Shown here: piece by piece, positions 2,324 to 18,200 of the stretch
Layout of the letters: each line of letters begins with the position of its first letter
How positions within the stretch are numbered: position 1 is the first letter of the stretch
Program-made: the position numbers and the translations under genes
NCBI GenBank assembly: GCA_026397595.1
Contig: JAPLUO010000214.1
Span: 1-63,326 of the forward strand
From: a candidate division WOR-3 bacterium
GTDB taxonomy: Bacteria > Hydrothermota > Tepidihabitantia > Tepidihabitantales > Tepidihabitantaceae
Reading direction: 5' to 3'
DNA: 63,326 bases
Notes under the pieces: generated by a model
Seen by the model: only the letters and a program-made list of their open reading frames with translations
Told to the model about the DNA's origin: nothing
Database searches by the model: none

Positions 2324-2348
2324 GCCGTCCTGCCTGCAAACTGCCAAC
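2276..2348 (+). repeat. 73-bp direct repeat copy 2, forming the 3' end and stop codon of the ParE-like gene
   Basis: gacaagccgccgacgaagcctgcccgcgctcgaagccgcaagcggtgagccgtcctgcctgcaaactgccaac. Confidence 0.85.
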
Positions 2349-2418
2349 CGGGAACTGGAAACTCGCGCGCTAGCGGGTCTGCTTGACTCGCGCGGCGCTG
2401 CGCTTATTCTCTTGCCGC

Positions 2419-2652: not shown

Positions 2653-2868
2653 AGGTCCAAGGGCCTTGTTCCCACCCGTGCACTTGACGGGTCGTCCGCC
2701 CCGCGTAAACTGTCCGCGATGCCATGCGAACCCCGTCCGGCATTGACGGAAGTAGAATTGTTTATCATGTCAACGGAATTGCCCGAGCTTGGCGAACGAC
2801 GCCACCCGGGCGCGTAATCGGAAAGGCGACGCGGACATGGACTGCGTCTCAAGCGATCCACTGGCGGG

Positions 2869-3819
2869 ATGCCGCGGCTAGGGCTCTCCAGGAACGTATC
2901 TATCAAAATCCACTTGGATACAGACATTGGCGGGGACATTGACGACCTATGCGCAATGGCAATGCTGCTGAAGTGGGATGACCTGGAAGTCACCGGGATT
3001 ACTACAACTGCGGACGACGGTGGTAGACGCGCGGGATACGCCAAGTACGTTCTGAAACTGGCCGAAAGAGAGGAGATTCCAGTCGCCGCCGGGGCAGATG
3101 TCTCCTCGTCGGACTATCGCTACAAGCCAGGCTATCCACCTGAAGAAGTGTATTGGCCTGAGCCGATTGACCCAGCACCGAATCCCGCTGATGACGCGAT
3201 TGAGCTTTTGAAGAAGAGCATTGAGAAGGGAGCACTTGTCGTTGGCATTGGCCCATACACAAACCTAGCTCTTCTAGATAGAAAGTACCCCGGGTTGCTG
3301 AACAAGACGAAGCTCTTCCTGATGGGTGGATGCATCTACCCCGCAAGAGAGGGCTTTCCCATCTGGGGCAACGATATGGACTACAATGTCCAGCTTGATG
3401 CTGCTTCTGCGAAACACTGTATTGAGTGTCTGAATCCAACGCTCATTCCACTTACCGTGACAATCGAGACCGCTCTTCGGAAAGCCTATTTACCCGAGCT
3501 GGAAAGATCAGGCCCTGTCGGCAGGCTCATCGCCAGACAAGCGCGGGCTTTTGCAGGAGACTGGGATAACGAACGCAGGTACGGAAGAACATGTGACGGG
3601 CTACCGCCGGACATGATCAGCTTCCAGCACGATTCTCTAGCCTGTGCCGTGGCGGCAGGATGGTGTGGCGCAAGAACTGAGATGGTCCCACTGGAACTGG
3701 AAGCAGAGGATGGATGGTTGTGCGAGAGCGTCTCGAAGTCAGGCAGACCGACTTCCGTGGTAACAGAGATCGACAGAGGAGCATTCAATCAGTTCTGGCT
3801 GGACACCGTCATCTCGTGA
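2869..3819 (+). CDS. nucleoside hydrolase (IUNH family)
   Basis: N-terminal DTDIGGDIDD aspartate cluster, with family-like similarity continuing through ...GPYTNLALL.... Confidence 0.8.
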   Translation: MPRLGLSRNVSIKIHLDTDIGGDIDDLCAMAMLLKWDDLEVTGITTTADDGGRRAGYAKYVLKLAEREEIPVAAGADVSSSDYRYKPGYPPEEVYWPEPIDPAPNPADDAIELLKKSIEKGALVVGIGPYTNLALLDRKYPGLLNKTKLFLMGGCIYPAREGFPIWGNDMDYNVQLDAASAKHCIECLNPTLIPLTVTIETALRKAYLPELERSGPVGRLIARQARAFAGDWDNERRYGRTCDGLPPDMISFQHDSLACAVAAGWCGARTEMVPLELEAEDGWLCESVSKSGRPTSVVTEIDRGAFNQFWLDTVIS

Positions 3820-3888
3820 GCGGGAATTCCAGTTCACGTGAGGGGGAAATGCGGGGGGAAATGCGGGACACTTCCCGTACTTCAGAGC

Positions 3889-3960
3889 GATGTCAAGGCG
3901 CGGCAGGAAGAGGTGGTCGAGTTGGTGGAAATGCGGCTGAAGTCGCACAAGGACTTGCCC
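3889..3960 (+). repeat. RM-tail repeat R1
   Basis: GATGTCAAGGCGCGGCAGGAAGAGGTGGTCGAGTTGGTGGAAATGCGGCTGAAGTCGCACAAGGACTTGCCC, reading DVKARQEEVVELVEMRLKSHKDLP. Homologous to 4985-5060. Confidence 0.8.
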
Positions 3961-3990
3961 CTGAGACAAGCGAGGGAGGGGTCGCACCCG

Positions 3991-4941
3991 GTGACGTTCG
4001 TTGACCGCCTTGTGTCAGGCGTGCTGGCGAAGAGAAGCCACGTTGTTGTTGGGCTCGACCCTGTGTACGAGGACATACCGGCACCTGTACGCCGTCGATA
4101 CGCCAAAACGCTTCGCGGAGCAAGCCTCGCCAGCGCCGAGTTCAACTTCCGCATCATAGACGCAGTATGCGACATCGTACCGGCTATCAAACCACAGATT
4201 GCTTTCTACGAGAGGTACGGCATCGAAGGAATCAAGGCATTCCTTCAGACCGTCATCTACGGGAAGAAGAAGGGGTTGGTTGTTATCGAGGATGCCAAGC
4301 GAAGCGACATTGGCTCAACTGCGGCAGCCTACTCGCAGGGCCACATCGGGCGGGTGAGCATTGCCGGTCGCAGCTTCTCGCCGATCGACGTGGATGCCAT
4401 GACAGTGAATGCATATCTGGGCAGCGACGGCGTGCTGCCCTTTGTAGAGGATGTGGTGAACCACGGCAAGGGCATATTCGTACTGGTCAAGACATCAAAC
4501 CCGACATCAATCGAGATACAGGATGTGACCGTTGTCGTTCGTGGAAAGCGCTTGAAGCTGTACGAGGTCATGGCGCATCTTGTCGACAACTGGGGCAGAC
4601 GTGCGATGGGGGATTGCGGGTATTCTTCTGTGGGAGCTGTCGTCGGCGCCACGTTCCCGGAGGAAGCCAAGAAACTGCGCGAGCTCATGCCCAGAGCGTA
4701 TTTCCTTGTCCCAGGCTTCGGTGCCCAGGGTGGCACAGCGGCTGATGTGGTTGGCTGTTTCAATAGCGACGGCCTCGGGGCCTTGGTTTCCGCCTCAAGA
4801 AGCGTGATCTATGCCTACAAGCGCACTCCCGGCTTGGCCGGGCAGCGTTTCGCTGACGCAGCCAGAGCCGCCATTGTCACGATGAACGAGGATGTGAACG
4901 GCGTGCTGGCCAGGGACAAGAAACTTCTTTGGCAGAGGTGA
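3991..4941 (+). CDS. pyrF: orotidine-5'-phosphate decarboxylase, type 2
   Basis: HVVVGLDPV..., IKPQIAFYERYG..., VIEDAKRSDIGSTAAAY..., FVLVKTSNP.... I trimmed the start to the in-frame GTG at 3991, after a GGAGG run. The ORF-track N-terminus (3838-3990) is repeat R1, not PyrF. Confidence 0.8.
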   Translation: MTFVDRLVSGVLAKRSHVVVGLDPVYEDIPAPVRRRYAKTLRGASLASAEFNFRIIDAVCDIVPAIKPQIAFYERYGIEGIKAFLQTVIYGKKKGLVVIEDAKRSDIGSTAAAYSQGHIGRVSIAGRSFSPIDVDAMTVNAYLGSDGVLPFVEDVVNHGKGIFVLVKTSNPTSIEIQDVTVVVRGKRLKLYEVMAHLVDNWGRRAMGDCGYSSVGAVVGATFPEEAKKLRELMPRAYFLVPGFGAQGGTAADVVGCFNSDGLGALVSASRSVIYAYKRTPGLAGQRFADAARAAIVTMNEDVNGVLARDKKLLWQR

Positions 4942-4975
4942 AGGGAAGAAGGGCAAGCCCTGAACGCTCCCCATA

Positions 4976-5224
4976 ATGCTGAGCGGTGTCAAGGCGCGGC
5001 ATGACAGGATGGTCGGTCTGGGCGAGATGATGCTGAAGCTGCACAAGGACCTGCCCAAGGCCAAGACGCCGCACGAGCAGGAATCCCTCCAGCGCCAGAT
5101 AGCGGCAACCGATAGGCAGATAGACACCTTCGTGTACGAGCTGTATGGACTGACGGAAGAGGAGGTTAGGATTGTGGAGGCAGTGCCAACTCGCGAGGCG
5201 AGCGTGGGAGGTAAGTCGAAATGA
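4976..5224 (+). pseudogene. 3' remnant of the type IIG RM/methylase gene (repeat R2, the most complete copy)
   Basis: VKARHDRMVGLGEMMLKLHKDLPKAKTPHEQESLQRQIAATDRQIDTFVYELYGLTEEEVRIVEA is the characteristic extreme C-terminus of TaqI_C/Eco57I-like enzymes. It is the only copy that is open to a stop codon, and that stop overlaps the next gene's start (ATGA). Confidence 0.6.
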
Positions 5225-5499
5225 AGATCTTCTTCTACATGAAGCGCAATCCCCGGAACATCAGCGGCGTTAGCTACAAGATATGGAAGATTGAGCGGAA
5301 AGGACGGAAGGTCACCACATGGTGGGCGCCGGCCGAGTGCATTGGTCGCAGGGTATGCCCAGCGCGAGCCCTTCAAACCCATGCACTTCGCTTCCGTTCG
5401 GAACGTGATGCTGTCGACGACGAACGGCGGCGCGTGCAGAGCAAGCTTGCCAAAGGCTACGAACGGTTGCCCCGGATTCGACCGTGGGCACGTTTGTAG
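5221..5499 (+). CDS. small WGR-domain protein
   Basis: YKIWKIERKGRKVTTWWAP...ERDAVDDERRRVQSKLAKGYE resembles the WGR fold pattern (W..G...f.s...A......K..KGY). Confidence 0.45.
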   Translation: MKIFFYMKRNPRNISGVSYKIWKIERKGRKVTTWWAPAECIGRRVCPARALQTHALRFRSERDAVDDERRRVQSKLAKGYERLPRIRPWARL

Positions 5500-5576
5500 G
5501 CTCAATGCAATGGGATAACCATGGACAGTCCCCTACTTGATGACGATATCAAGGCGCTGCGTGACGGAGCTGCTGT

Positions 5577-6029
5577 ATGACATGCTTTGAAAGCCTGAGC
5601 GTCTGGACTGCCGTCGCTTCAGCGCTCTCAGCCACTGTGGGCCTGCTACTGACTGCCAAAGCCCTCCGGGCCAACACTATACAGCGGAACTTGGACCTCT
5701 TCGTCAAGTACTACCAGCGAGTGGTCGATGCTGCCGACCGAATGACGCAAGCAGGCGATCCCAAGGAGCACCGGCGCTTAGTATTCGGTCTTGGCGTAGA
5801 GCTAGAGGGATTCGCGTTCCTCGTCAACAACGGGTACTTGAATGACCGCAAGATGATTGACTTCTGGAAGCCAACTCTGCTCGGCTGGCATGAGGAGCTG
5901 TTCCCGCCCCGCATTCCCGACTGGAGTGACCCCAAGAACTACGTTGAGTTCAAGAAACTGTGTCGTAGTCTGAAAGTCTCTGAGAACAACATGCCTGATG
6001 TTGACAGCCGGCACGGCACGACCGGGTAG
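5577..6029 (+). CDS. hypothetical protein with an N-terminal membrane anchor
   Basis: 150 aa with one hydrophobic helix (VWTAVASALSATVGLLLTA). No family recognised. Confidence 0.4.
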   Translation: MTCFESLSVWTAVASALSATVGLLLTAKALRANTIQRNLDLFVKYYQRVVDAADRMTQAGDPKEHRRLVFGLGVELEGFAFLVNNGYLNDRKMIDFWKPTLLGWHEELFPPRIPDWSDPKNYVEFKKLCRSLKVSENNMPDVDSRHGTTG

Positions 6030-6037
6030 TCGCGGCG

Positions 6038-6140
6038 ATGCTGAATCTGCACAAGGCCTTGCCCAGGGCCAAGACGCCGCATGAGCAGGAATCCCTCCAG
6101 CGCCAAGTCGTCGCTAGCGACAGCCAGACTGACTCGTTGG
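6038..6140 (+). repeat. RM-tail repeat R3
   Basis: Reads MLNLHKALPRAKTPHEQESLQRQVVASDSQTDSL. The DNA is clearly homologous to 5025-5130. It starts 9 nt after the upstream stop codon. Confidence 0.8.
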
Positions 6141-6239
6141 CATGTAGCCGGGAAGCTGCCACGGATGCGTGGCGGGAAAGAGTGTCATGATGAAGGACTT
6201 GACCCCGCTTCTCAGTACGTCCTATTGTGGTGTTGAGAG

Positions 6240-6692
6240 ATGACATTCCCGACTAGGCATGTCGCGCGTGTCATAATCATTGACGGTGCGGACTCCGTCT
6301 TGCTTTGCAGGTACTCGGAGACCATTGACGACCTCGCGGTCTGCTATTGGGTTCCTCCCGGAGGGGCGCTGGAGGCGGGAGAGGACCATCATGCGGCGGC
6401 TCTTCGTGAGACCAGAGAGGAAACCGGTCTGGTCGTGCAACTTGGCCGTCAACTCTGTGAGAGGCGGTTCATCTTACACATGCAGGATGGACCCGTTGAC
6501 CAGATCGAGCGCTACTTTCTTGCCCGACTCTCTTCAGTGAAGCCCGAGGTGGCCAACTCTCTCGGTGAGGACATTCAGGAACTGCGCTGGTGGCCGTTCC
6601 ACGACCTTCGGTTCACGACCGAGAGGATCTATCCGGAGGGTCTTGTGGAGCAGCTCTCGAGTCTGATGGCTGGGACCCGTATCTCCAAGTGA
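6240..6692 (+). CDS. NUDIX hydrolase
   Basis: Nudix box GGALEAGEDHHAAALRETREETGL. The stop codon lies inside repeat R4. Confidence 0.85.
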   Translation: MTFPTRHVARVIIIDGADSVLLCRYSETIDDLAVCYWVPPGGALEAGEDHHAAALRETREETGLVVQLGRQLCERRFILHMQDGPVDQIERYFLARLSSVKPEVANSLGEDIQELRWWPFHDLRFTTERIYPEGLVEQLSSLMAGTRISK

Positions 6693-6800
6693 TGTCAAGG
6701 CGAGGCATGACAAGATGGTCGAGTTGGTCGAGACGATGATGACAACCGATAGCTTACGGCTGACAGCTTGCGGCTTGCAGCTCACGGCTGACAGCCTCGG
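6691..6800 (+). repeat. RM-tail repeat R4 plus a low-complexity word tail
   Basis: GATGTCAAGGCGAGGCATGACAAGATGGTCGAGTTGGTCGAGACGATGATG (DVKARHDKMVELVETMM), followed by cggctgacagc/gcttgc word repeats. Confidence 0.8.
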
Positions 6801-6809
6801 CAAAGCGGT

Positions 6810-7553
6810 GTGAGTGAGATGTCTCCGAAATCCGGCCGGGTCGTGAAGCCAGCGACGGGCAGTTCGGAATCACCTGTTTCCGGTGAACTCGTAAGCGCCC
6901 GGGAGTTCTGGGACCGTTGCTTCAAGGAGGTCGCTCCCGATGTTAAGGATGCGCCTCCTGGCCGCGACCTCTCTGAGATCGTCAACCGCCTGCGAGCAGC
7001 GTCGGCGGTCGATGTGCTTGATGTGGGCTGCGGGCTCGGCCGCTGGAGCGTGACTCTGGCACGAGCCGGGTTTCGGGTTCTCGCGGTGGACGTGTCGTCC
7101 GAAGCGGTGAGGATCGTACGCGAGAGAGCGCAACGTGAGGGTCTGGCCATCAGCACGGCAGTCTGCGCCGCTCAGGAGCTATCTCGGCCGGGCGTCCATG
7201 TTGATGCGGTGGTGTGCAACTCGGTGCTCGACCACATGCGCCCGCATGATGCGGACATGGCCGCAACGAACATCATGCAGACGTTGAAGCCTGGCGGCCT
7301 GGCGTACGTATCGTTCGACGGCCTCGACATCGGAGACACCGGTCCTGAAGTGCGACAGAACTACCGTGTCGCCGCGGACGGTACATGGGAATACGTGCGC
7401 GGCCCGCGAAGAGGAATGATCTGGCGGTACTACCAGGACCCGGAGATACGCAGGCTGTTTCGGGAGTTCGAGGAAGTAGAGTTCTCTGTCTGGAATACCG
7501 GGCAGCGACGCACCTGGTTCCGCAAACCAATCAGGGACAGTCACCCGACATGA
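6810..7553 (+). CDS. class I SAM-dependent methyltransferase
   Basis: Motif I VLDVGCGLGRWSVTLARAGFRVLAVDVS, and later LKPGGLAYVSF. Confidence 0.8.
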   Translation: MSEMSPKSGRVVKPATGSSESPVSGELVSAREFWDRCFKEVAPDVKDAPPGRDLSEIVNRLRAASAVDVLDVGCGLGRWSVTLARAGFRVLAVDVSSEAVRIVRERAQREGLAISTAVCAAQELSRPGVHVDAVVCNSVLDHMRPHDADMAATNIMQTLKPGGLAYVSFDGLDIGDTGPEVRQNYRVAADGTWEYVRGPRRGMIWRYYQDPEIRRLFREFEEVEFSVWNTGQRRTWFRKPIRDSHPT

Positions 7554-7635
7554 AGACGGCGGCAAGGTGCGGCGGGTGACGCGTGCCGGAGTTGCCATAT
7601 CTGCTAAAAGCAGGAGAATAGACGCTCTGCTATCA

Positions 7636-8976
7636 ATGAAAGGAACGCGAATGCTCAGAACCTCAGTCTTTGGTCTGGCCCTGTTGTCCCTGGTCTTGGC
7701 CGGGCCGGCAGATGATTTCGAGTCCCGGGTGACCGAGTTCAAGCTTGCGAACGGCCTGCCGGTGCTGGTCTACACGGATTCCTCGGCGCCGGTAGTGACC
7801 GTCGCGGTCGCCTACAAGGTGGGCTCGAACTACGAGCCGGCCGGCAAGACCGGCCTGTCCCACATGCTCGAACACATGACTTTTCAGCACAGCGACATCT
7901 ACAAGCCGGGCGAGTTCTTCCGGACTATCCAGGCGAACGGAGGTGTGAACAATGGCTTCACCTCCGGTTACTATACCGCCTATTTCGAGGTCTTCGCGCG
8001 CGAGAAGTGGGAACTCGGAATGAAGATCGAGGCCTCACGCATGGGGCGCTGCGTCTTTCTCGATTCCGATTTCGCAAGCGAGCACCAGGTCGTGGCCGAG
8101 GAGCAGCGACTCAGCGAGAACAGCCCGTCCAGTGTCTTCTGGACCCAGCTCAACGCCGCGGCACTGCTTGCCCACCCGGCGCGCAACCCAACGGTGGGTT
8201 GGGCCGACGATGTCGCGCATTTCACGACCGACGCAGTGCGTGACTGGTACCAGCACTACTACAGCCCGTCCAACGCGTTGTTGGTCGTAGCGGGCGATGT
8301 CCGGCCCGACGAGGTGCGAGCGAAGGCCCAGCAGTACTTCGGCAAGTACAAGGCCCGGCCGGTCAGTCTGCCGGACTTCTACAACACTGAGCCGAAGCAG
8401 GTCGGCGAGCGTCGCATGGTGGTCCATAAGATCGTCACGCAGCCGTCTCTGGCCATCGCCTATCACTCGCCGGGTATCCTCGACTCCGCGTTTTACGCCT
8501 CGGTGGTGGCCGGCGGCGTACTCGGCCAGGGCCGGGGTTCCCGCCTGTACCAAAGGCTGGTGGTCGATTCCGGACTGGCCACCAGCGCATCGGCCTACTC
8601 CGAATCCGGGCGCGACCCGGGCCTGTTCTGGGTGAGCGTCACCCCGAAGGCTGAGAGCCTGATTCCGCGCATCGAACGGATCGTCTATGCCGAGATCGGC
8701 CGATTGGGCAAGGAATCGATCACCGACCGCGAGTTGCAGCGGGTGAAGAACCAGGTGGTTGCCGACTACATCTACAGCCGCGATGCCATCATGTGGATGG
8801 CTATCATCCTGGGCAGCTACCAGCTTACCCATGGTTCGTGGCGAGAATTCAAGCTGTATCCCGAGAAGATCGGCCGAGTGACCGCGGCCGAGGTGCAGAG
8901 CTTCTGCCGGGGGTTTCTGACGGCCGACAATCGTACGGTCGGGACGTTGCTCCCGATTGCGCAGGAGGAGAAATGA
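7636..8976 (+). CDS. M16 family zinc peptidase (catalytic subunit), secreted
   Basis: HxxEH zinc motif (LSHMLEHMTF). Signal-peptide-like N-terminus from the ATG at 7636. Confidence 0.85.
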   Translation: MKGTRMLRTSVFGLALLSLVLAGPADDFESRVTEFKLANGLPVLVYTDSSAPVVTVAVAYKVGSNYEPAGKTGLSHMLEHMTFQHSDIYKPGEFFRTIQANGGVNNGFTSGYYTAYFEVFAREKWELGMKIEASRMGRCVFLDSDFASEHQVVAEEQRLSENSPSSVFWTQLNAAALLAHPARNPTVGWADDVAHFTTDAVRDWYQHYYSPSNALLVVAGDVRPDEVRAKAQQYFGKYKARPVSLPDFYNTEPKQVGERRMVVHKIVTQPSLAIAYHSPGILDSAFYASVVAGGVLGQGRGSRLYQRLVVDSGLATSASAYSESGRDPGLFWVSVTPKAESLIPRIERIVYAEIGRLGKESITDRELQRVKNQVVADYIYSRDAIMWMAIILGSYQLTHGSWREFKLYPEKIGRVTAAEVQSFCRGFLTADNRTVGTLLPIAQEEK

Positions 8977-9035
8977 GACGCGGCCATTTCAGATTTCAGA
9001 TTGCAGATTGCAGATTGAGGAATTGCGGAAACCGA

Positions 9036-10361
9036 ATGACACGAGTGATTGTCGCGGCGTGCATTATGGGCGGCCTGGCCTCAGCCGTGCCGCTGTATCG
9101 CGATACCCTGCCGAACGGGCTGGCCGTTGTCAGCTACGTGGATCATCGCCTGCCGATGACCGACATCGCGTTTGTCTGCCGGTCCGGCTCGGCCAGCGAT
9201 CCGGAGGGCAAGTGGGGACTCGCCAACGGCACCGTGACCCTGATGACCCGGGGCACGAAGTCGATGACCGCGGATTCGATTGCGAGCATCGTCGAATTCC
9301 TCGGCGCTCAGTTCAACGGCTATGCGGGCAACGACAACAGCATGATCTCCCAGCGCGTTCTGGCCAAGGACCTCGTGACCGGGCTGGACCTGCTGACCGA
9401 CGCTGTGCGCAATCCGAGCTTCGAGGCGAAGGAGGTCGAGCGCGCCCGGGCTGAAGGGATGGCTCAAGTCCGGGAGATGTCCGACTATCCGCTGGCCCGG
9501 GTGATGGTGGACTTCTACCAGACGCTCTTACCCGGTCACCCGTACGCTCACCAGACCATCGGCGACACGGTATCGCTGATGGCGATTACGCGGGAAGACC
9601 TCATCGCCTTTCACAAGACCAACTACGTGCCCAACAACTGCTTCATCGTGGCGGTGGGCGACTTCGACCGGCCCGAGTTGCTGAAGATGATTCAGGCCCG
9701 GTTCGGCGACATGACCCGGGGTGAGGTTACGGAGGTCAAAGCTCCGGACATGCCTTTCCCGGCCAAGCTGCGAGTGAAGCTCATCGCCCGCCCGGACATG
9801 AACCAGACCTACATCATGTTCGGCCATCCCGGCATCGCGTACTCTGATTCAGACCGGCTGGCAACGAACCTGGCCGTCCACATCCTCGGCGGCGGCGCCC
9901 TCGCCTCTCGGATTGGTGATGCCGTGCGCGAAGAGGCCGGCCTGGCGTATGAGGTCCGCACCGTCTTCGACCAGGACCGTCTGCGTGGGGCATTCTGGGC
10001 CTGGGTGCAGACCGCCAAGCCCAAAGAGGCAATCGCCATCATGTTCCGGGAGATCGAGAGAATGCGGAAGGACGGCGCGAAGAAGAGCGAACTCGAAGAG
10101 GCGCAGAACTACTACGCCGGTAGCTACCCGATTCGGTTCAGCTCCAACCAGGGCAAGCTGTACGAAGCGGTCAATATCGAGTTCTACCAGCTCGGTCTGG
10201 ACTGGGTTGACAAGTACCCGGACAAGATCCGCGCCCTGACCCTTGACGAGGTCAACCGGGCCGCGCGCGAGCGCCTGCATCCCGGGCACTACGTTATGGT
10301 CGTCATGGGCAACGTGAAGAAAGAGGACCTTGGACTGAGCGACGTCGAATGGATTGAATAG
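9036..10361 (+). CDS. M16 family peptidase, non-catalytic partner
   Basis: M16 fold similarity throughout, but no HxxEH motif. Start trimmed to the ATG at 9036 (MTRVIVAACIMGGLASA). Confidence 0.8.
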   Translation: MTRVIVAACIMGGLASAVPLYRDTLPNGLAVVSYVDHRLPMTDIAFVCRSGSASDPEGKWGLANGTVTLMTRGTKSMTADSIASIVEFLGAQFNGYAGNDNSMISQRVLAKDLVTGLDLLTDAVRNPSFEAKEVERARAEGMAQVREMSDYPLARVMVDFYQTLLPGHPYAHQTIGDTVSLMAITREDLIAFHKTNYVPNNCFIVAVGDFDRPELLKMIQARFGDMTRGEVTEVKAPDMPFPAKLRVKLIARPDMNQTYIMFGHPGIAYSDSDRLATNLAVHILGGGALASRIGDAVREEAGLAYEVRTVFDQDRLRGAFWAWVQTAKPKEAIAIMFREIERMRKDGAKKSELEEAQNYYAGSYPIRFSSNQGKLYEAVNIEFYQLGLDWVDKYPDKIRALTLDEVNRAARERLHPGHYVMVVMGNVKKEDLGLSDVEWIE

Positions 10362-10625
10362 GCGCGGCGTGATAAGATGGTCGGGTTTCGTACATCGTTA
10401 CTTCGGCGGACTCGTACATCGTCCAACGCGGACCGCGAGGAATGATTCCGGCCAACGATGAACGTTGCAAGGTTTCTGCCGCGCTGTCGGACAGGGGCCG
10501 CCGAGGCCAACCAACGCGGCTGGTCGAGACGATGCGGGGTTCGTACATCGTTGCATCGAAGGACTCGTACATCGTTGAGAGCCTGACGTGAGATGCAGAC
10601 GATGCTGAAGCTGCACCGTGACAGC
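10362..10625 (+). repeat. composite RM-tail repeat R5 interrupted by 'cgtacatcg' word modules
   Basis: GCGCGGCGTGATAAGATGGTCGG ... CTGGTCGAGACGATG ... ATGCAGACGATGCTGAAGCTGCAC, separated by two ~45-bp modules of the form GTTCGTACATCGTT.C.TCG..GGACTCGTACATCG. Confidence 0.75.
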
Positions 10626-10667
10626 TCACGGCCAACGGCTAGCAGTTTCAAGCAGAAGGGGAGTCAG

Positions 10668-11666
10668 ATGAAGAGAAGGACGATTTCGATACTCGGGCTG
10701 TTGACGGCACTGCTAGGCATTGGTTGCAGCGACGCGAACAACCTGCGGATTACCCTCCGCCCGGCCGATACCACGCAGTACTCGGCCAGGGGCGCTCGAA
10801 GGCTCAGGGGCGACTCGAGCAGAATCCAGTTGCGCCTTGACTGGCTCTACGACGAACCGGGCTTTCGTCCGCCCAGTGAGAGGGCGAAGGTCGAGCCCAC
10901 GGACAGCACGATTACGGTCTCGGTCTCGGACACGTCCGGCGCGGCGCGGATCGAGTACCTGGCCTCGACGCGCGGGCTAATCACGTTCCGCCAGATTGCC
11001 GGGGATTCGATTGCAGGGGCGATACTCGACAGTGTTGACGGCTGGCTCCAGTTACACCCCGGGGCGGCCGCCGCAGGCCCGGGCTTGTTGGACAAATCGA
11101 TCTTCTACCGTAGTTACCAGTGCCGGGTCCTTGAACGGGATTATCCACTGGTCAGCAACGTTTTGAAGGCGGTTGATACTGCGGTCTACGATAGCTGGGA
11201 ACCGGCGTTTGGGGTGCTCGACGCAGGCAAGATCGACACGTCTCGAATCCTCTACTTCGTTGCACGGCAGCCGGAGATGTCGAACGCGAGGGGAAGGTTG
11301 GTCGCGTCCGCGGTTGCGCATCGGGGACGTGGCACTCGGCCTCCCAACGCTCCCCCGGTGGCGCGTGAGACCCAACCTTTCCTTGTGGACATGCAACTGT
11401 CCCATGACACGTTCTGGGGCCCCGACCCGGTTCTGAAACTGGCCGAGTTCACGGCTTCTCACGTAGGCCAGCGACTCGCCATGATGCTGGATACGGTTGT
11501 GCTCTCGGCGCCAATGATTCAGGATACGATTCGGGATGGGTCGTTCATGGTTGTAACCCGCGATACCCTGGGAGCCTATGCCCGGGACTTGACGACGATC
11601 TTCCTGAGCGGACCGCTCTACCCGCCGCTGGTCGTGGAGCGGGTCGAACGAGTCGGCGGGAAGTGA
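10668..11666 (+). CDS. lipoprotein with a SecD-head-like C-terminal region
   Basis: Lipobox LLGIGC after the ATG at 10668. The C-terminus ...FTASHVGQRLAMMLDTVVLSAPMIQDTIRDGSFMV resembles the SecD periplasmic head motif. Confidence 0.5.
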   Translation: MKRRTISILGLLTALLGIGCSDANNLRITLRPADTTQYSARGARRLRGDSSRIQLRLDWLYDEPGFRPPSERAKVEPTDSTITVSVSDTSGAARIEYLASTRGLITFRQIAGDSIAGAILDSVDGWLQLHPGAAAAGPGLLDKSIFYRSYQCRVLERDYPLVSNVLKAVDTAVYDSWEPAFGVLDAGKIDTSRILYFVARQPEMSNARGRLVASAVAHRGRGTRPPNAPPVARETQPFLVDMQLSHDTFWGPDPVLKLAEFTASHVGQRLAMMLDTVVLSAPMIQDTIRDGSFMVVTRDTLGAYARDLTTIFLSGPLYPPLVVERVERVGGK

Positions 11667-11684
11667 GGCGCCCGGGGCACCATG

Positions 11685-11802
11685 CAAGGCGCGGCGTGAT
11701 CGTATGGTCGGACTGGCGAGAGGATGCGGCCTCGTACAGCGTTGCATCGGAGGAATCGTACATCGCGCGGAGCCACCGCTAGCCGTGAGCCGTAAGCCGA
11801 GG
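11685..11802 (+). repeat. RM-tail repeat R6 plus word tail
   Basis: CAAGGCGCGGCGTGATCGTATGGTCGG..., then a third cgtaca(t/g)cg module, then gccgtgagccgtaagccgag words. Confidence 0.7.
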
Positions 11803-11946
11803 GTCCTCCCCGACGCGCTGGGGTTTCGGCGTGAGCGGTGAAGAGTTGACCGGACCACGTTCGAACCCTATGATTTGAGAGACCGTACGGCCCGTGCGTC
11901 GCATCGGGCCGGCGGAATGACCGCATCAGGAGGCACATTGAAGAAA

Positions 11947-12984
11947 ATGTCAGTATTGGCCGCTTTGCTGCTTCTGGTTGCCATGGCGCCGGCGTTCGAC
12001 CGCGTCGTGGTGGCCGAAGAGCCGTACTCTGAAAGCTGAGGGTCCTGCGCTGCTGCCAGCCGTGCGCTGGATCAGGTCCTTGAGGACTATGCCGGATCCG
12101 CCGTGGGTATCGAGTGGCACATAGTGAACGGCTCCCCATTGTACAGTCCCGAGGGGTGGGCCAAGTGGTGGCAGTATCCGCCGCCGTACGAGGGCGGCTA
12201 CGCCACGCCGTGGTGCTGGATTGACGGTAAGAGCCGCGGTTACCAGCCCAACTTGTGGGCCGGGTACGTAGCGGATGAGTTGCTCGTGCCGACCGAAGTC
12301 AGCTTGGCCCTGTCCGGGGAGTACAACCGATCCGCTCGGACGGGCACGCTCACTGCGGTCATCCACAACGCGGCGACATCGTCCCTGGATGCCGCGCTCC
12401 TCGTTGCCATCACCGAGGACAGCATCTACTACGTCGGCTCGAACGGCGACACCTGGCAGAACCACGTGCTCCGCGACTATGTACCCGACCAGAACGGCAC
12501 CACAATCTCGATTCCGTCGGGCGCGTACGACACGGTGACGATCAACTACGCACTCGACTCGACATGGGTCGAGCATTTCACCAAGGTCGTCGCCTACGTT
12601 CAGTCGTCGTCCACCCAGCCCGATTCGTCCCGGCCCTGCTACCAGGCCCAGGCCGCGCCGGTGCTCTCGTTCGTCGGTACCGCAGAGCCGCGGATTCCCG
12701 AGTCGTTCTACGACAACGCCACGGTCGCGGTCGGGCCGAACCCCTGCCGCGCCAATGCGCAGTTCCGGTTCACCGGCAGGGCCGGCCGAGGCTATCGTCT
12801 CGATATCTACTCGCGTGACGGCCGGCTCGTGCGCGAACTCGCCGGCACGATCAACCCGGGCATGAACACCCTCGCATGGGATCGGACCGACGTTCGTGGG
12901 CGGAAAGTCGCGGGCGGCGTCTACGGCTTCCGCCTGGTTTCGACCGGGACCTCGGCCCCGGGCAAGCTCGTTCTCACGGACTAG
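11947..12984 (+). CDS. candidate selenoprotein: secreted Omp28/thioredoxin-like protein with a T9SS C-terminal sorting domain; TGA at 12037-12039 read as Sec
   Basis: AGGAGG (11928-11933), ATG at 11947 and a signal peptide. An in-frame TGA at codon 31 sits in ...VVVAEEPYSES-U-GSCAAAS.... The frame then stays open for 315 more codons into the ORF-track ORF 12103-12984. The C-terminus is a T9SS/FlgD-Ig-like CTD (...LDIYSRDGRLVRELAG...WDRTDVRGRKVAGGVYGFRL...). Confidence 0.55.
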
Positions 12985-13048
12985 AACCGACAAAGATCCG
13001 AATACAGTAGTGAGCGGCGCAGGCATGGAACAAGGATAGGAGCCAGGA

Positions 13049-13681
13049 ATGAGAGTATTGCTGGTGAACGGCAGTCCCCGCGCCAAAGGGTGTACGCATA
13101 CCGCGCTGGAAGAAGTAGCCAAGTCGCTGAGTTCAGAAGGGATCGGAACCGAGATATTCCATATCGGAACCGAGCCTCTGTCCGGCTGCACTGCCTGCAG
13201 GAGCTGCCGGGAAACCGGGCGGTGTAAGATCCCCGACCGAGTCAATGAGTTCCTCGATATTGCGGGAGACGCGGACGGCTATGTGTTCGGCTCACCCGTA
13301 CATTATGCGGCCGCGGGAGGTGCCATTGCCTCATTCATGGCTCGCGTTTTCTATACCGCCGGCCTTTCCGGCAGCGGAATCTTCTACTTGAAGCCGGCCG
13401 CCGCTGTCGTCTCGGCCAGAAGGGCGGGAACGACCGCAGCGTTCGACCAGCTCAACAAGCTCTTCACCCTGGCCGAAATGCCGGTCATCTCGTCGAGGTA
13501 TTGGAACATGGTTCACGGCTCCACACCGGAGGAGGTAAGGAGAGACCTCGAGGGAATGCAGATAATGCGCATACTGGGAAAGAACATGGCCTGGTTCCTG
13601 AAGTGCAAGAAGGCGGGTATCGAGGCCGGTGTCCCGTTCCCTGAGCGAGAAGAGACCGTGTTTACCAACTTCATTCGCTGA
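13049..13681 (+). CDS. iron-sulfur flavoprotein-like / flavodoxin-family FMN reductase
   Basis: MRVLLVNGSPR.... Compact CX2CX2CX5C motif (CTACRSCRETGRC). ...GYVFGSPVHYAAAGG.... Confidence 0.75.
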   Translation: MRVLLVNGSPRAKGCTHTALEEVAKSLSSEGIGTEIFHIGTEPLSGCTACRSCRETGRCKIPDRVNEFLDIAGDADGYVFGSPVHYAAAGGAIASFMARVFYTAGLSGSGIFYLKPAAAVVSARRAGTTAAFDQLNKLFTLAEMPVISSRYWNMVHGSTPEEVRRDLEGMQIMRILGKNMAWFLKCKKAGIEAGVPFPEREETVFTNFIR

Positions 13682-13911
13682 CCAGCGCTGCTCAGGACCA
13701 TGACTCATGCTGCCTGGTACGGAAATGGCTGAAGCGGAATAGTGTAAGTGCACTGCCCGGGCAATCTCGGTGCCGCAATCCCCGATTGCCTCCGATGCGC
13801 GGCAAGCGACTTCGTCTGCCCGGACGACTCGGTCGCAGATCAAGCCCGGCCCGGCTCAAGCCGCATACTGTGAGCCGTCAGCCGCAGGCTATCGGACGAC
13901 CACCCCGCCCA

Positions 13912-13940
13912 TTTGACACGCCCGCACGCACGTCCTAGAA
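13912..13940 (+). promoter_or_regulatory. sigma70-like promoter candidate
   Basis: TTGACA (13912-13917), 17-nt spacer, TAGAAT (13935-13940). About 90 nt upstream of the ATG at 14030. Confidence 0.4.
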
Positions 13941-14029
13941 TCAGCCATGACCGGACCGGAATCAACCCTAGCGGATGCCGGAAACGCGGGAAGTATCCCC
14001 GCCGAAAACCAGGGCCGGAGCAAGCCACG

Positions 14030-14302
14030 ATGAAAAGGAAACAGCCCGAGACCCGGGAAGAATTCTACAGCGAACTCGATCGGCGCTGGCGGGTGACGGC
14101 CCAGCCGAAGCCGAAGGTGTTTACCGCAATCAATACCATCATTTTGGTCGTCGTCCTCGCGGTTCTGTGTGTCGCCGCGTACATGAACCGCGCGCGCATC
14201 GGCGCGCTCTGGCAGCAGGTGACCGGCAAGGCCCCGCCCATTTGGGTCATGCCCGAGAAACCGGAGCGCGAAGGCCCGGAAATCGAGGGCCGGGACTTCT
14301 AA
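14030..14302 (+). CDS. small single-pass membrane protein, hypothetical
   Basis: 90 aa from the internal ATG, with one TM helix (AINTIILVVVLAVLCVAAY). Confidence 0.35.
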   Translation: MKRKQPETREEFYSELDRRWRVTAQPKPKVFTAINTIILVVVLAVLCVAAYMNRARIGALWQQVTGKAPPIWVMPEKPEREGPEIEGRDF

Positions 14303-14514
14303 TCGCGCGGGGAATCCCGAGACGCAAACCGGATTCCGTCCGCGCCTTTTACTGCCTGTTCTCCAATCAGGACTGTGTTCCTGTCCCGCGGAGTCGTGCC
14401 GGAGAACGTGCCCGCAGCCGAGAGCCGTGAGCCGATAGCGACCCTGGACGTGTTGCTGCGGGAATTGTACGGAGTGATGGAAGAGGAGATCATGATTATC
14501 GAAGGAGAGCAAAG

Positions 14515-15072
14515 GTGACCGACGGTCAAGTCAACATGGGCATGAACCGGAAGGGTGGTGACGCTCGGCCACCTTCGCGCTGGTCGGAATTCGCTAATCT
14601 GCGGAACTACATTTTTGGCAGCTCGGCCGCGATCATCACAGACATCAGTCTTATCGTCGGACTGGGTTCGGCCCGGACCGGCAAGGAGCCGATTCTCGCC
14701 GGGCTCTTGACCATCGCCGTTGCCGACAACATCTCCGACTCCCTCGGAATCCACATGTACAAGGAGAGCGAAGGATATGGCCAGAAGCTGTCGCTGTTTT
14801 CAACCCTGTTGAACTTCCTCTCGCGTCTGCTGATTTCCTGCACCTTTGTCGCGATTGTCCTGGTGCTTCCCATGGCTCACGCCATTGTCGTGGGGCTGAT
14901 CTGGGGGTTGTTGCTGATCGTCCTCATCAGCTACCTTATCAGCCGCAGCAACAGAGAGAAGCCGCTCAAGGAAATAGTCATACACCTTCTAGTTGCGGTC
15001 GTCGTGATCGCGCTAAGTCTGTACCTGGGACGCGCAATAGCGACGTACTTCCATGCGACAGGGCGAGCGTAA
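14515..15072 (+). CDS. VIT1/CCC1-like membrane protein (short form)
   Basis: Polytopic. The segment ...FGSSAAIITDISLIVGLG...LAGLLTIAVADNISDSLGIHMYKESE resembles VIT-family membrane domains. Confidence 0.45.
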   Translation: MTDGQVNMGMNRKGGDARPPSRWSEFANLRNYIFGSSAAIITDISLIVGLGSARTGKEPILAGLLTIAVADNISDSLGIHMYKESEGYGQKLSLFSTLLNFLSRLLISCTFVAIVLVLPMAHAIVVGLIWGLLLIVLISYLISRSNREKPLKEIVIHLLVAVVVIALSLYLGRAIATYFHATGRA

Positions 15073-15115
15073 TTCCGGGAGGGAGGAGAAGCGGCTGCTT
15101 TCCATATTCCTGAGC

Positions 15116-15195
15116 GATGTCAAGGCGCGGAGTGACAAGACAGCCGAGTTGGTCGAGCGGATGGTGACGGCTGGCGGCTTGAGGCTTGTGGTTTG
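15116..15195 (+). repeat. RM-tail repeat R7 plus word tail
   Basis: GATGTCAAGGCGCGGAGTGACAAGACAGCCGAGTTGGTCGAGCGGATGGTG (DVKARSDKTAELVERMV), followed by ggcggcttgaggcttgtgg words. Confidence 0.8.
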
Positions 15196-15206
15196 AAACC
15201 CGCAAC

Positions 15207-18200
15207 CTACAACTTGGTCCGGCGCAGGCGGAGGGAGTTGGTGACCACGTTCACTGAGGAAAGGCCCATCGCCACTTCGGCCATGATGGGATGGAGCAGC
15301 CCGAGCATGGCCAGCGGTATCGCGACCACGTTGTAGGCGAACGCCCAGAAGAGGTTTTGCCTTATCTTCACAAAGGTGGCGCGGGAGAGCTTGATTGCGG
15401 AAACAACACCTGTCAGGCTGCCGCGCACGAGTGTGACGTCCGACGATTCAATGGCCACTTCGGTGCCGGTGCCGATGGCGATGCCGACGTTGGCGGCCTT
15501 CAAGGCCGGCGCGTCGTTGATGCCGTCGCCGACCATGGCCACGCTGCCGAACTCTTTCTGCAGGTCCATCACGACCTGCTGCTTCTGCGCGGGCAGGACT
15601 TCCGCGACCACGCGCTCGATTCCGACTTCGCGGGCAATCGACTCCGCAGTCTCATGGTTGTCGCCGGTCAGCATCACTGGCACGATGCCGAGCGCCTTGA
15701 GGCCGGCAATCGCCTCGGCTGAGTCCGGCTTGACCGTGTCGGCCACGCCGATGACGCCGAGCAGTTTTCCTCCGGCCGCGACGTAGAGCGCACTCCGCGC
15801 CCGCTTCTGGAGTTCTGTCGCCGCATCGGTGAGAGCACGGCAGTCAACCCCGCATTCCTTGAGCAGTTCCTCTTTGCCGACCACCACCTCGACGCCACTC
15901 ACCAGGCCTTTCACACCCAGGCCCGGAACAGCTTGAACTTCCGTTGCCTGCGAGAGAAGTTCTTTGGAGTGCGGCAGCGGAGCTGCCGCCTTTCCGGGCT
16001 CGTCCGTCCGGTTCGGAAAAGCGGGAGCTGCGCTCCCGCACTCCAAGGCCCCGGAAGCACCGCAATCCGGTACGGTCCCCACGATTTCGGTCATGTCCCG
16101 CGCCGCGGCGATTACCGCTCCTGCCAGAGGATGTTCCGACCCCTGTTCCACTGCAGCAGCCATCCTCAGTACATCGGCTCGCTGCACCCCGGCGGCCGGA
16201 ATCACGTCGGTGACCGCGGGCCGGCCCTGCGTGATGGTGCCGGTCTTGTCGAGCACGACCGCGCGGACGTCTTTCAGGGTCTGAATCGCCTCTCCCGAGC
16301 GGAAGAGAATCCCGCGCTCCGCGCCCATGCCGGAGCCGACCATCAAGGCGGTCGGAGTCGCAAGCCCCAAGGCGCACGGGCAGGCAATCACCAACACCGC
16401 GACTCCGGCAAAGAACGCGAGCGATACCACCGGTAATTGCGGGTTGACCCATGGCAGGAACTTCGCGGCCCATACGAGCATCGGCTTGAGGCTCGGCGTC
16501 AGGAAGAACCACGCGGCAAAGGTCACCGCTGCGACCAGCAGGATTACAGGTACGAAACGGGCCGTTACCTTGTCGGCAAACGCCTGAATGGGAATCTTGG
16601 TGCCCTGTGCCTGCTCGACCAGCTTGATAACCTGGGAGAGGAACGTGTCTTTGCCTACACGGGTAGCCTCGACCTTGATGAGGCCGTTGCCGTTCACTGT
16701 CGCGCCGATGACCTCGTCGCCGGTCTTCTTCTCGATCGGCAACGACTCGCCGGTCGCCATTGATTCGTCCACGCTGGTGCTGCCTTCGACAATCCGGCCG
16801 TCGGTGGGAATCTTCTCTCCGGGCCGGACAACCATCACGTTGCCGGGCGCGAGTTGCGCAACCGGCACTTCCTTCTCGACGCCCTCAGCCGTTTGAATCC
16901 GCGCGGTGCGCGCACCGAGGGCGACGAGCTTCTTGATCGCCTGTGAGGCCCGGCCCTTTGCGCGCGCCTCGATGTACCGGCCGGTCAGGAACACGGCCAT
17001 CACCATGCCACCGGCGTCGGCAAAGCTCTTTATCGGCAGCCCGGCCAGCACGGCGACCCCGGAAGCCAGCGCCGCGCTCACGCCGAGCACAATCAGCACG
17101 TCCATCGAAGCGGACCCGGCGCGCACCGAACCCCATGCCCCGCGTATCGTGGTCCATCCCGGGCCGAACAGCACCGCGGTGCAGAAGGCGACGTCAATCC
17201 AGACCATCCCCGGGATGTGGACCGCGTGGAGGCCGTGCAGCACCATCAGCAGCATCGGCACCAGCCCGAGAATCCAGGCCCAGACCAGCCGGCTGGAGGC
17301 ACGGCGAAGTTCGGCCTCGGCATGGTCTTCGCTGCCGGCCGTTTCGTGCCTGACTTCGTAACCGACGTCGGTAACCGCCTTCTCAAGCGCGGCGACCGGC
17401 GACACCTTGGGGTCGAACTCGACGATCGCCTTCTCAATGGCGAAGTTCACTGTCGCTGTCTTTACGCCCGGCAGCCGGTTGAGCGCCTTCTCCACGGTGG
17501 CCACGCAGCTCGCACAGCTCATGCCGCCGACCGCAAGTGTCACGGTCTGGGTCTTCCCCAGTTCCGCCTTGTCGAGCAGCACGGGCTCGGGCAAACCGCT
17601 GTCCGCGATTTGTCCTTCGTCCTTCGTCCTTTGTCTTTCTCCCTGCAAGAACCTCTCCGGTTCGGACTGGAACCGCTTCAGGCAGTTCGGGTTGCAGAAG
17701 TAGAAGGTAGTGCCCTTGTAGTCCCACTTCGCCGCCTCCTGCCCTTCCTGAACCACCATCTTGCACACCGGGTCAATGTGAGATTGCCGATTGACGGTTG
17801 CGGATTGTAGAATGTCCGGACCCTTTGTGTCTTCGAGTCTTGGTGGTAAGGTGCCGTCAGTTCTGACTTCTGACTTCCCCCGTACTTTCGTGTCCTTGTG
17901 TCTTTGTTGTGGGATTCCAGCAGTTCTGACCTCTGGACTCTGCATTCTGACTTCTGCCTTCGGTTGCGCTGCCGGCTGAGGTTTGGGCTTGAGTCCAAGG
18001 TACAGGTCCGGGTCAGCCTTGAACTGCTCAAGGCAGCTTTGGCTGCAGAAGTAGTACGTCTTTCCATTGTACTCCCACTTGCCCGCCTCACGGCCCTCGA
18101 TAACGTGCATTCGGCACACCGGGTCAACGTGCGACTTCGCCAGTCCCTCGGCCACCGGCACGACTTCAGGCGTCTTCTGCTCGACCGGCGGTTTCGTATC

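Follow-up and report, generated by a model that had tools for sequence, protein, structure and literature searches.

This article concerns a short repeat that punctuates a row of genes in a bacterium of candidate division WOR-3. The row lies in a 63,326-nt contig (62.6% G+C overall) from a metagenome-assembled genome (MAG), and the whole contig is what we call the window. Judging from its sequence, the repeat is the 3'-terminal ~225 nt (~70 codons) of an Eco57I/MmeI-like type IIG restriction-modification (RM) gene family, and its copies are RM tails that were propagated as stand-alone units. Nine or ten of them crowd into 11.3 kb, the other 48 kb of the window having no credible copy, and the one-directional gene row they punctuate takes up 13 kb. 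Arrays of this kind run one way; each gene or small block is bounded by a copy, and an RM gene, real or decayed, can head the array. Comparison of related genomes indicates that conserved blocks end at copies and that the blocks between copies are the units by which relatives differ. As for what the copies do, our preferred reading, given a little less than even weight, is that in these operon-like rows of cassettes they would offer a handle for recombination and a coupler for translation.

A first-pass annotation of the window had named seven copies, R1 to R7, all on the + strand. Self-comparison of the window and a blastn search with R2 retrieve all seven, on that strand and at those places. 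We then have a 229-nt nhmmer profile, built from 20 independent full-length copies from other genomes and applied to the window at a cut-off of E < 0.01, which returns nine matches (E 1e-67 to 3e-3), all + and spanning 3869-15167. The copies are listed here, with positions within the unit given as profile positions and L numbers denoting loci outside the window.

3869-3960, + strand: R1, profile 4-95, nhmmer E 3e-15; the full element, 3842-3960, has a duplicated G-rich decamer (3842-3864), a leader, and segments A and Mid to position 95.
4967-5184, + strand: R2, profile 6-223, nhmmer E 1e-67; the complete unit, 4962-5224, has an intact 82-aa tail open reading frame (ORF) at 4976-5224.
5999-6143, + strand: R3, profile 23-174, nhmmer E 2e-31.
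6676-6742, + strand: R4, profile 9-75, nhmmer E 4e-13; the full element, 6668-6813, is a short tail variant, segment A and then a degenerate 'LRL' end.
7533-7580, + strand: a remnant, leader variant b and the start of segment A, recognized by eye in comparison with L093 and L049, with an exact motif match.
10353-10385, + strand: R5 segment A, profile 24-56, nhmmer E 3e-3.
10597-10635, + strand: R5 continuation after an inserted module, profile 64-103, nhmmer E 6e-4; the whole split unit, 10353-10635, runs from A (10353-10389) through two TCGTACATCG modules (10384-10424 and 10537-10577) to positions 64-103.
11684-11727, + strand: R6, profile 28-72, nhmmer E 7e-4; the full element, 11684-11798, is segment A, a TCGTACATCG module and a AGCCGTGAGCCGTAAGCC module.
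14432-14509, + strand: a 3'-end piece, profile 148-224, nhmmer E 4e-8; with a preceding AGCCGTGAGCC module it covers 14416-14518.
15098-15167, + strand: R7, profile 6-75, nhmmer E 5e-8; the full element, 15093-15196, has a leader, segment A and an LRL-type end, and is the last copy, facing the convergent copA.

R5 and R6 are individually weak, and their support comes from position and strand and, for R5, from an orthologous copy in L093. One marginal match (62187-62233, E 0.015), antisense within an FtsX/MacB permease gene, was taken as chance. Pairwise, the window copies are 62-85% identical with no long exact stretches in common, each has nearer relatives in other genomes than within its own array, and a further copy lies on a second contig of the same MAG (P0014). 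A G-rich decamer resembling the first bases of the unit leader is tandemly duplicated just upstream of some copies: GGGGGAAATGC twice at window 3842-3864, GGGAGAATTA twice at ~455-475 of L093, and again at ~170-190 of L080.

The parentage of the unit is clearest in L017, a locus encoding a 994-aa protein with Pfam matches to Eco57I (1e-43), N6_Mtase, MmeI_Mtase and HSDR_N, whose nearest solved relatives are the methyltransferases CamA and BseCI and PglX/BrxX of the phage-defence system BREX. Its C-terminus is a variant of R2. Read in the tail frame, R2 gives ...VKARHDRMVGLGEMMLKLHKDLPKAKTPHEQESLQRQIAATDRQIDTFVYELYGLTEEEVRIVE..., deposited at NCBI as protein NTX53_09240, and it matches residues 925-990 of the L017 protein (tblastn E 7e-14). 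The first-pass annotation had derived all copies from a single sequence, the extreme C-terminus of a type IIG enzyme. The RM origin is borne out by this match and by the RM domains, with TaqI_C (PF12950) present in only three (P0106-P0108) of the best 120 of 1390 protein relatives of R2; the single sequence gives way to mosaics of tail segments and unrelated small modules.

No copy in the window ends an intact RM frame. Only a decayed head survives, directly upstream of the array and absent from the earlier account, where matches to the L017 protein place it:

2381-2655, + strand: decayed type IIG RM head, from promoter scan, sequence and tblastn with the L017 RM protein.

Residues 1-46 of L017 (2419-2583) are here fused to residues 326-354 (2569-2655), with tblastn E values of 3e-8 and 7e-10, in a frame that opens with an ATG at 2419 and stays open to 2817. 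A promoter-like TTGACT-16-TATTCT at 2384-2410 ends ~8 nt ahead of that ATG, and both it and the N-terminus are shared with the intact L017 gene and with 11 mini-elements described below. Upstream of the other window copies, tblastn with the L017 protein found no remnants of an RM body, and across all loci only 3 of ~77 copies with an intact 5' end continue the frame for >900 codons.

The unit has defined edges. Its 3' edge is the tail stop codon, at which similarity between copies ceases, and this stop is TGA for 57 of the 65 intact, non-redundant 3' ends. In 27 of the 65 the next long ORF starts 1 nt before the tail stop (ATGA, GTGA or TTGA); these junctions involve 27 different downstream genes, and in 21 of them the final codons of the tail (..IVEGG..) supply a Shine-Dalgarno (SD)-like motif 4-18 nt upstream. 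Three such overlaps occur in the window: ATGA at 5221-5224 for R2; GTGA at 6810-6813 for R4, whose own stop (6811-6813) overlaps the GTG start (6810) of a methyltransferase gene; and GTGA at 14515-14518 for the 14432 piece, with TGA at 14516-14518 and GTG at 14515. The 5' edge of stand-alone copies is a common leader, GGGACACTTCCCATATTTCTGAGCGATGTC or a second variant, which by-eye alignment relates to the RM codons ..LPVRAIDV.. with a 15-nt deletion. Since the same edge and the same deletion recur in unrelated contexts, the copies must have multiplied as stand-alone units.

Upstream genes, too, keep close to the unit. Most stop no more than ~40 nt from the 5' edge, often at out-of-frame TGAs in the leader, so different genes share C-termini encoded by the unit, as in ..IRDSHPT (stop) of the window methyltransferase and ..IRDSHQI (stop) of an unrelated L049 protein. 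The earlier observations that the stop of a NUDIX gene (6690-6692) falls within R4 and that of an M16 peptidase gene (10359-10361) adjoins R5 are correct. To these can be added the methyltransferase stop (7551-7553) inside the remnant at 7533-7580 and a 150-aa ORF that terminates within R3, in the tail frame (6027-6029). The remaining upstream stops lie 18-45 nt ahead of a copy.

Within the unit, copies are often interrupted or ended at ~56-58, 72-77 and 85-98, and ~25 copies begin at 85-98. In a short variant, to which R4 and R7 belong, segment A gives way to a degenerate 'LRL' stretch, and the 3' half of that stretch is a tail end that has diverged. LRL was considered as an insertion along with the TCGTACATCG and GATGAGCG modules, a view dropped for LRL, which is partly a degenerate tail end (DEDEIRIVE). 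Comparison of 31 full-length stand-alone copies gives the 3' segment a variability of 0.387 at third codon positions against 0.146 at first and 0.117 at second positions, and the ratio of nonsynonymous to synonymous polymorphism (pN/pS) is 0.31 there and 0.41-0.46 in the two segments upstream. Protein-level constraint, past or present, and decay are mixed in this coding signature.

The unit is by no means confined to the window. It is present at ~80 other loci in WOR-3, related sediment MAGs and metagenomes. The best 120 of the 1390 protein relatives of R2 are nearly all metagenomic ORFs of 54-140 aa, 58-92% identical to it, and three quarters of these 120 are at least 75% identical. A 20-mer from the middle of the unit, used as the DNA search pattern, found 10 stretches in GTDB species genomes (including two WOR-3 MAGs, and one MAG with at least five matches) and 77 in JGI metagenomes, mostly from freshwater sediment and wetland. 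It found none in 2.9 million viral contigs, on which ground a phage vehicle was rejected; a plasmid or cultured-organism context yielded only two weak haloarchaeal plasmid matches without annotation. In the fetched sequences the profile makes 152 matches. Wherever a locus has several copies they are co-oriented (41 of 41), and the nearest long ORF lies on the copy's own strand upstream in 80 of 85 cases and downstream in 67 of 79.

L017 shows the arrangement most plainly. An intact RM gene is followed in a row by a NucS-like gene, a tail (88-217), a gene for a secreted BNR protein, a tail (90-222) and a 356-aa gene, with NTGA at each junction; the RM gene keeps its complete tail, and 5'-truncated copies starting at position 88-90 follow the inserted genes. 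Cargo in other arrays is often of defence or mobile type (AbiU2 HEPN, DUF3800, RhuM, Bro-N, a pPIWI-associated nuclease, a large AAA ATPase, a SacI endonuclease with a D12 methylase) and also includes surface proteins. In the window, the genes between copies encode PyrF, NUDIX, an S-adenosylmethionine (SAM) methyltransferase, M16 peptidases, Omp28 and an FMN reductase. At L058 (5917-8311) there is a complete type II pair, a D12-class methylase fused to a UPF0758 N-domain and a SacI-family endonuclease, with a tail 3' piece (profile 98-222) 30 nt past its stop; tail copies thus also flank RM systems of other types.

Do the gene blocks move? All comparison sequences are metagenome assemblies, many of them short contigs, and two blocks of the window can be followed in them.

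3962-4975, + strand: pyrF block, 90% DNA identity to L090 and L091, whose flanks are unrelated.
7561-10387, + strand: block of the M16-peptidase pair, 88% DNA identity to L093 over 2829 nt (blastn), with different neighbours on both sides.

L090 and L091 hold the closest relatives of PyrF (89% in protein, 90.4% in DNA over 993 nt), and the DNA similarity covers window 3962-4953 only. On the left it begins at the start codon, which in L090 forms an ATGA straight after the stop of a different gene and in the window reads CTGA, joined in frame to R1 at profile position 95. On the right a weak similarity continues ~35 nt beyond the stop, ~15 nt into R2 by way of its leader, and is then lost; L090 has an AIRS-domain gene beyond pyrF and no tail. 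As deposited, PyrF (P0121) is 367 aa long, its frame opening at GTG 3838 and passing through R1. The ATG of the L090 gene is CTG in the window (~3962), so that the repeat forms an N-terminal extension of the window protein, either in fact or by annotation. More distant relatives set pyrF in other company again, between two methyltransferase genes with unit fragments on the flanks of the block (L092, 72%) or between an AdoHcyase-like gene and a second OMPdecase gene (L088, 75%).

The M16 block has the leader/A remnant at its left edge both in the window, where this is the remnant at 7533-7580, and in L093. Its right edge falls at profile position 58 of R5, beyond which the window has a TCGTACATCG module and a lipoprotein gene and L093 another module and a YgjP-like gene. 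Two more relatives retain the M16 pair with other neighbours. Across related locus pairs there are 21 internal synteny breakpoints, and 13 of them have a copy no more than 60 nt away, although positions so close to a copy account for 9.7% of bases (binomial p roughly 1e-8, a value inflated by the choice of loci). A radical-SAM cassette lying between copies is common to L033 and L080, at 94.7% identity; the L033 contig ends ~70 nt past the other copy, leaving one comparable outer flank, which is non-homologous. L002/L032 and L037/L079 have a copy and the downstream gene in common and not the upstream sequence. The first-pass description of the window as cassette-like thus finds support in the 41 other co-oriented arrays and in blocks conserved only between repeats.

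All credible genes from ~860 to 15,072 lie on the + strand, after which comes the convergent copA. The setting of the array is as follows.

1072-1536, + strand: VapBC-like PIN toxin module (Pfam PIN).
1946-2323, + strand: ParE toxin module.
2419-2817, + strand: 132-aa frame.
2869-3819, + strand: nucleoside hydrolase.
3991-4941, + strand: PyrF.
5221-5499 and 5577-6029, + strand: two small ORFs without assigned function, the second of 150 aa.
6240-6692, + strand: NUDIX.
6810-7553, + strand: SAM methyltransferase.
Up to 10361, + strand: two M16 peptidases.
After the M16 pair, + strand, in this order: SecDF-head lipoprotein, Omp28/type IX secretion (T9SS) protein, FMN reductase.
14515-15072, + strand: membrane protein.
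15207-18356, - strand: copA (copper ATPase), convergent to the array.

G+C is 54-59% across window 1-6600, a stretch that contains the toxin-antitoxin genes, the RM remnant, the hydrolase, pyrF and the small ORFs, and ~62-63% from the M16 genes on and window-wide. Within copA, 15964-16046 holds a 33-nt inverted repeat in the coding sequence, 88% complementary with a 17-nt loop, which amounts to an extra stretch of protein and is possibly an in-frame palindromic insertion. Low-complexity repeats of TCTGCACTCTGCATTCTGCA type occur in the intergenic 632-768 near the contig start and at 17824-17974, where they encode ..SEVRT..-like stretches in the N-terminal linker of copA between YHS domains.

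Several smaller elements accompany the tails. Inside copies there are two unrelated small modules, TCGTACATCG... and GATGAGCGATAAGCGCGGAACGATG..., and a AGCCGTGAGCCGTAAGCC module stands ahead of 3' pieces; in the window such modules are confined to the array. A recurrent structure is TCGTACATCGTT, ~12 nt, TCGTACATCGTT and often then GAGAGCCTGAAGTGAGAGACGGTG, at window 10384-10424, 10537-10577 and 11728-11766. At 1537-1606 of L080 a TCGTACATCG module interrupts a tail copy that runs without a break in L033 (94.7% identical), which gives the module the look of a miniature insertion element in its own right. The mini-elements, found in at least 11 loci and several contexts, consist of the RM promoter and ~30 N-terminal codons, on which the tail follows from position ~90-94; the junction comes in two variants. 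A palindromic insert of ~45 nt (..ATGACCGAAATGTCCGACATTTCGGATCGTGTCC..), which matches itself in both orientations, lies within the RM N-terminal remnant in L066, L051, L063 and L042 and is present in some mini-elements only. Repeat searches also found a 73-nt module, D7, whose copies are 90% identical and end two unrelated toxin genes (..DKPPTKPAR..):

1489-1561, + strand: first D7 copy, last ~16 codons of the PIN toxin gene.
2276-2348, + strand: second D7 copy, last ~16 codons of the ParE toxin gene.

Elsewhere, D7 forms the end of a PIN gene in L046 (10530-10991), and in L052 it stands ahead of a tail 3' piece.

How might such arrays come about? In the scheme we favour, the tail copies would be portable stretches of homology. 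Recombination between two co-oriented copies would excise a block together with one copy, and excised or incoming tail-bearing DNA recombining with a resident tail would insert a block and add a copy. The recombination could be general and of RecA type, illegitimate and facilitated by homology, or an insertion with long target duplication. Arrays would grow and reshuffle in this way with orientation kept. Copies would be retained in that orientation because the 3' end gives a ribosome-binding site and stop/start coupling to the downstream gene, and the RM head would be retained by selection because it supplies a promoter. Partial copies and small-module insertions would be later decay. This homology-handle scheme would account for the strict orientation, the clustering, the block-wise differences and the layout of L017.

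There is a good deal to set against it. No recombination intermediate, circle or whole-unit filled-versus-empty site was seen; the search for a filled/empty pair of the whole unit covered 95 loci, most of them short. Nor did we recover from a relative an empty RM tail site with the same flanks, L017 being compatible with insertion with long target duplication. Inside the unit the breakpoints scatter (~16, 30-45, 56-58, 72-77 and 85-98), which would fit general or illegitimate recombination and also simple decay. Multiplication as stand-alone units is explained by recombination only if the units travel with cassettes. The scheme gives no account of how unrelated genes come to lie exactly at the NTGA junction, where selection on outcomes may be at work, and none of the identity of the small modules. 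Housekeeping genes such as pyrF and the M16 peptidases are odd cargo for a capture system. Conservation of DNA in the middle segment does not appear in copies that were found other than by the 20-mer; it arises, at least in part, from ascertainment through that search and was withdrawn as evidence for a recombination site. Finally, the proposed mechanism is built on comparison of short contigs from metagenome assemblies, where repeats can break or mis-join contigs, a concern eased by window block edges that fall in divergent parts of the unit without long exact matches.

The likeliest rival is that all this is debris: one or more type IIG RM genes decayed in place in a variable, defence-island-like region, the copies having no role and the rearrangements being incidental. 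The decayed head at 2419-2655, the many copies with stops, frameshifts or deletions, and the defence-type genes in arrays elsewhere (AbiU2 HEPN, DUF3800, RhuM, the SacI RM pair, the pPIWI-associated nuclease) all sit well with it, as do the loci, at least 11, in which the RM gene is reduced to promoter, 30 codons and tail, the two junction variants suggesting recurrent deletion at microhomology. We nevertheless think it unlikely, for nine copies would require about nine RM genes in 11 kb and no RM-body remnants precede the other window copies; the same 5' edge and 15-nt deletion in unrelated contexts speak for propagation as units; and neither co-orientation in 41 of 41 loci nor an NTGA/SD junction with 27 different genes is expected from random decay. 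If debris it is, the arrays still show that the ends of an RM gene (promoter, N-terminus and tail) can outlive the gene and be co-opted as expression signals. Assembly is least of all to blame. Chimeric joins at a repeat common to co-assembled populations could make arrays and synteny breaks, all the sequences are metagenome assemblies, and many contigs do end inside the unit; yet the window copies are divergent (only 62-85% identical, without long exact stretches in common), the block edges lie in divergent parts of the unit, and identical arrays recur in independent assemblies (L001 = L069 = L081, L008 = L068), and we regard this explanation as remote. It is also very unlikely that the tail is a real small protein family (~60-80 aa, two helices and a LVYELYGLTEEEI motif) duplicated in the array, for instance to modulate RM enzymes. 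More than 100 database ORFs of 54-140 aa, 75-90% identical to R2, are mostly intact, pN/pS is 0.31-0.46 among stand-alone copies and the tail frame is open for at least 70 codons in most full copies, but that signal of selection can be inherited from time spent inside RM genes. R2 alone is intact in the window, many copies are fragments unable to encode the protein, neither a start codon nor a ribosome-binding site is found consistently ahead of the ORF, and no Pfam, Rfam or PDB relative was found.

Known mobile elements offer two further rivals. The ~225-nt unit and the mini-element could be mobilized in trans by a transposase with a preference for stop-start gaps, in the manner of miniature inverted-repeat transposable elements (MITEs). 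Defined edges in many unrelated contexts, a mini-element that retains both ends of its parent gene, as MITEs do, and contig breaks at the unit of the kind expected from a multi-copy repeat all invite this, and the TCGTACATCG module does show a filled (L080) and an empty (L033) site. Against this, no whole-unit pair of that kind was found, the best inverted match between the unit ends is 7 of 12 positions for a 12-mer, an alignment of 22 copies with their flanks shows no target-site duplication, subterminal hairpins are missing (the fold z-scores are positive), the 63-kb window has no transposase, and the copies are clustered in arrays and not dispersed. A MITE proper was rejected for want of terminal inverted repeats and target duplications, and the MITE-like reading seems improbable to us. 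Rated a shade below it is a site-specific cassette system, integron-like or an integrase-less accretion of islands at the RM 3' end, with its recombinase elsewhere or upstream of the contig start. The complete tail of L017 followed by 5'-truncated copies is the pattern of integration at a gene 3' end, ~25 copies start at 85-98, and the array lies at the start of the contig, leaving upstream genes outside it. Many of the 85-98 starts, however, are put down to a short tail variant standing in front or to the derivative in which a deletion joined N-terminus and tail, and the block edges of the window fall at several different unit positions. Pfam scans of large ORFs across the whole window, a contig that begins 2.4 kb before the RM head, found genes of metabolism, of the envelope and of toxin-antitoxin systems and no integrase, transposase or reverse transcriptase, and the scanned ORFs of the fetched loci, where most were left unscanned, gave no Pfam match to a recombinase.

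Other candidates fell away. The unit folds no better than shuffled sequence (z +1.16 as RNA, +0.96 as bottom-strand DNA), and attC-type cores (RYYYAAC...GTTRRRY) form 2 pairs per strand, a chance-level count (expectation 0.8), none of them at a copy; together with the absence of IntI from the window, this led us to reject integron attC sites. A structured RNA or terminator is disfavoured by an Rfam search over 1-15400 that gave nothing even at E <= 1 and by terminator-like sites that are no commoner than in shuffles, none being at a copy. A retro-type origin, with a common 3' end and random 5' truncation, was rejected since starts are clustered, 3'-truncated copies are equally common and there is no reverse transcriptase; no large window ORF has the reverse transcriptase domain of a diversity-generating retroelement.

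What, then, has been found? A repeat-bounded, co-oriented cassette array that is a robust feature, widespread in an uncultured lineage and apparently undescribed. The first-pass annotation knew of no element of this kind, and our limited literature search agrees: no paper's full text matched the peptide motif, and type IIG tails as cassette repeats led only to general papers on RM mobility. The 229-nt profile marks variable regions and likely mis-annotations, such as the 367-aa 'PyrF' that includes R1. Should the homology-handle reading be true, it would explain the abundance in sediment metagenomes of short 'hypothetical proteins' with ...KTPHEQESLQRQIAATD.QID.LVYELYGLTEEEIRIVEG, the contig breaks at such ORFs and the fluid gene order of the lineage even around core genes. 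Bolder, and to our minds rather unlikely, is the idea that WOR-3 and related sediment bacteria possess a gene-capture system, integrase-independent or using an unknown recombinase, built on a type IIG RM gene: a near-leaderless promoter would drive the array, the tail would be recombination handle and coupler, duplicated with each block, and defence, surface and housekeeping genes would travel as cassettes. The mini-elements of promoter, N-terminus and tail would then be portable expression modules.

It is instructive to set the array beside systems that are known. Escherichia coli bacterial interspersed mosaic elements (BIMEs), Neisseria intergenic mosaic elements (NIMEs) with dRS3, and minimal mobile elements resemble it as modular intergenic repeats of short modules at points of rearrangement or gene exchange. 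Theirs are short, often palindromic and dispersed genome-wide in both orientations, as are repetitive extragenic palindromic (REP) sequences in their short palindromes and dispersal, whereas here the unit derives from a coding tail, is unstructured, and is clustered within 11.3 kb and co-oriented. Closer in layout are the orphan arrays of rhs and cdiA, which are thought to arise by recombination at a conserved segment that pushes older ends downstream (C-terminal displacement). An intact platform gene followed by co-oriented, 5'-truncated copies of its 3' segment leading to new genes is what L017 has; in the window the platform is decayed and copies are truncated at either end. The variable part of rhs/cdiA is a toxin tip with the cognate immunity gene of the same system, a description that the genes between the window copies do not answer, being unrelated whole genes, and here the conserved piece is the extreme end of a gene and small-module insertions also occur.

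Direct repeats of a gene 3' end between inserted blocks, with the target gene intact, are likewise left by tandem accretion of integrative elements and integrase-less cis-mobilizable elements (CIMEs). That process depends on an integrase, tyrosine or serine, and on a fixed crossover site; neither was found here, and our blocks are of single genes. Insertion with long target duplication has been described for RM genes (Furuta, Abe and Kobayashi 2010, PMC2853133), and it shares with the arrays RM-linked insertions and direct repeats of tens to hundreds of bp without transposase or integrase. In that process it is the RM genes that are inserted, and an arbitrary target sequence becomes the repeat; in the present arrays the target that is repeated is the RM tail, and the role of insert falls to other genes. 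Many-repeat arrays do not figure in that description (PMC2853133).

The first-pass annotation had likened the array to integrons, and the comparison deserves the last word. The analogy fails on the defining parts: no integrase in the window, no attC fold or R''/R' cores, and heterogeneous breakpoints in place of one crossover site. The repeat is a ~225-nt coding tail without palindromic structure (z > 0), its copies are often partial or mosaic, and the cargo includes housekeeping genes. What the arrays have in common with integron arrays, and with clusters of attC sites lacking an integrase (CALINs), is the overall plan: co-oriented, mostly promoterless genes, each cassette ending in a repeat that abuts or overlaps the stop, a promoter-bearing platform at one end, and toxin-antitoxin genes in the array (PIN and ParE, 1072-2323). 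Even the help with translation has its counterpart in ORF-11 of attI1, which aids translation of the downstream integron cassette from an upstream site. If the homology-handle reading is true, the WOR-3 arrays would be a second, mechanistically different solution to the integron problem, with genes stacked one way behind a promoter through a reusable, translation-securing junction made from the end of a defence gene, apparently without a dedicated integrase.

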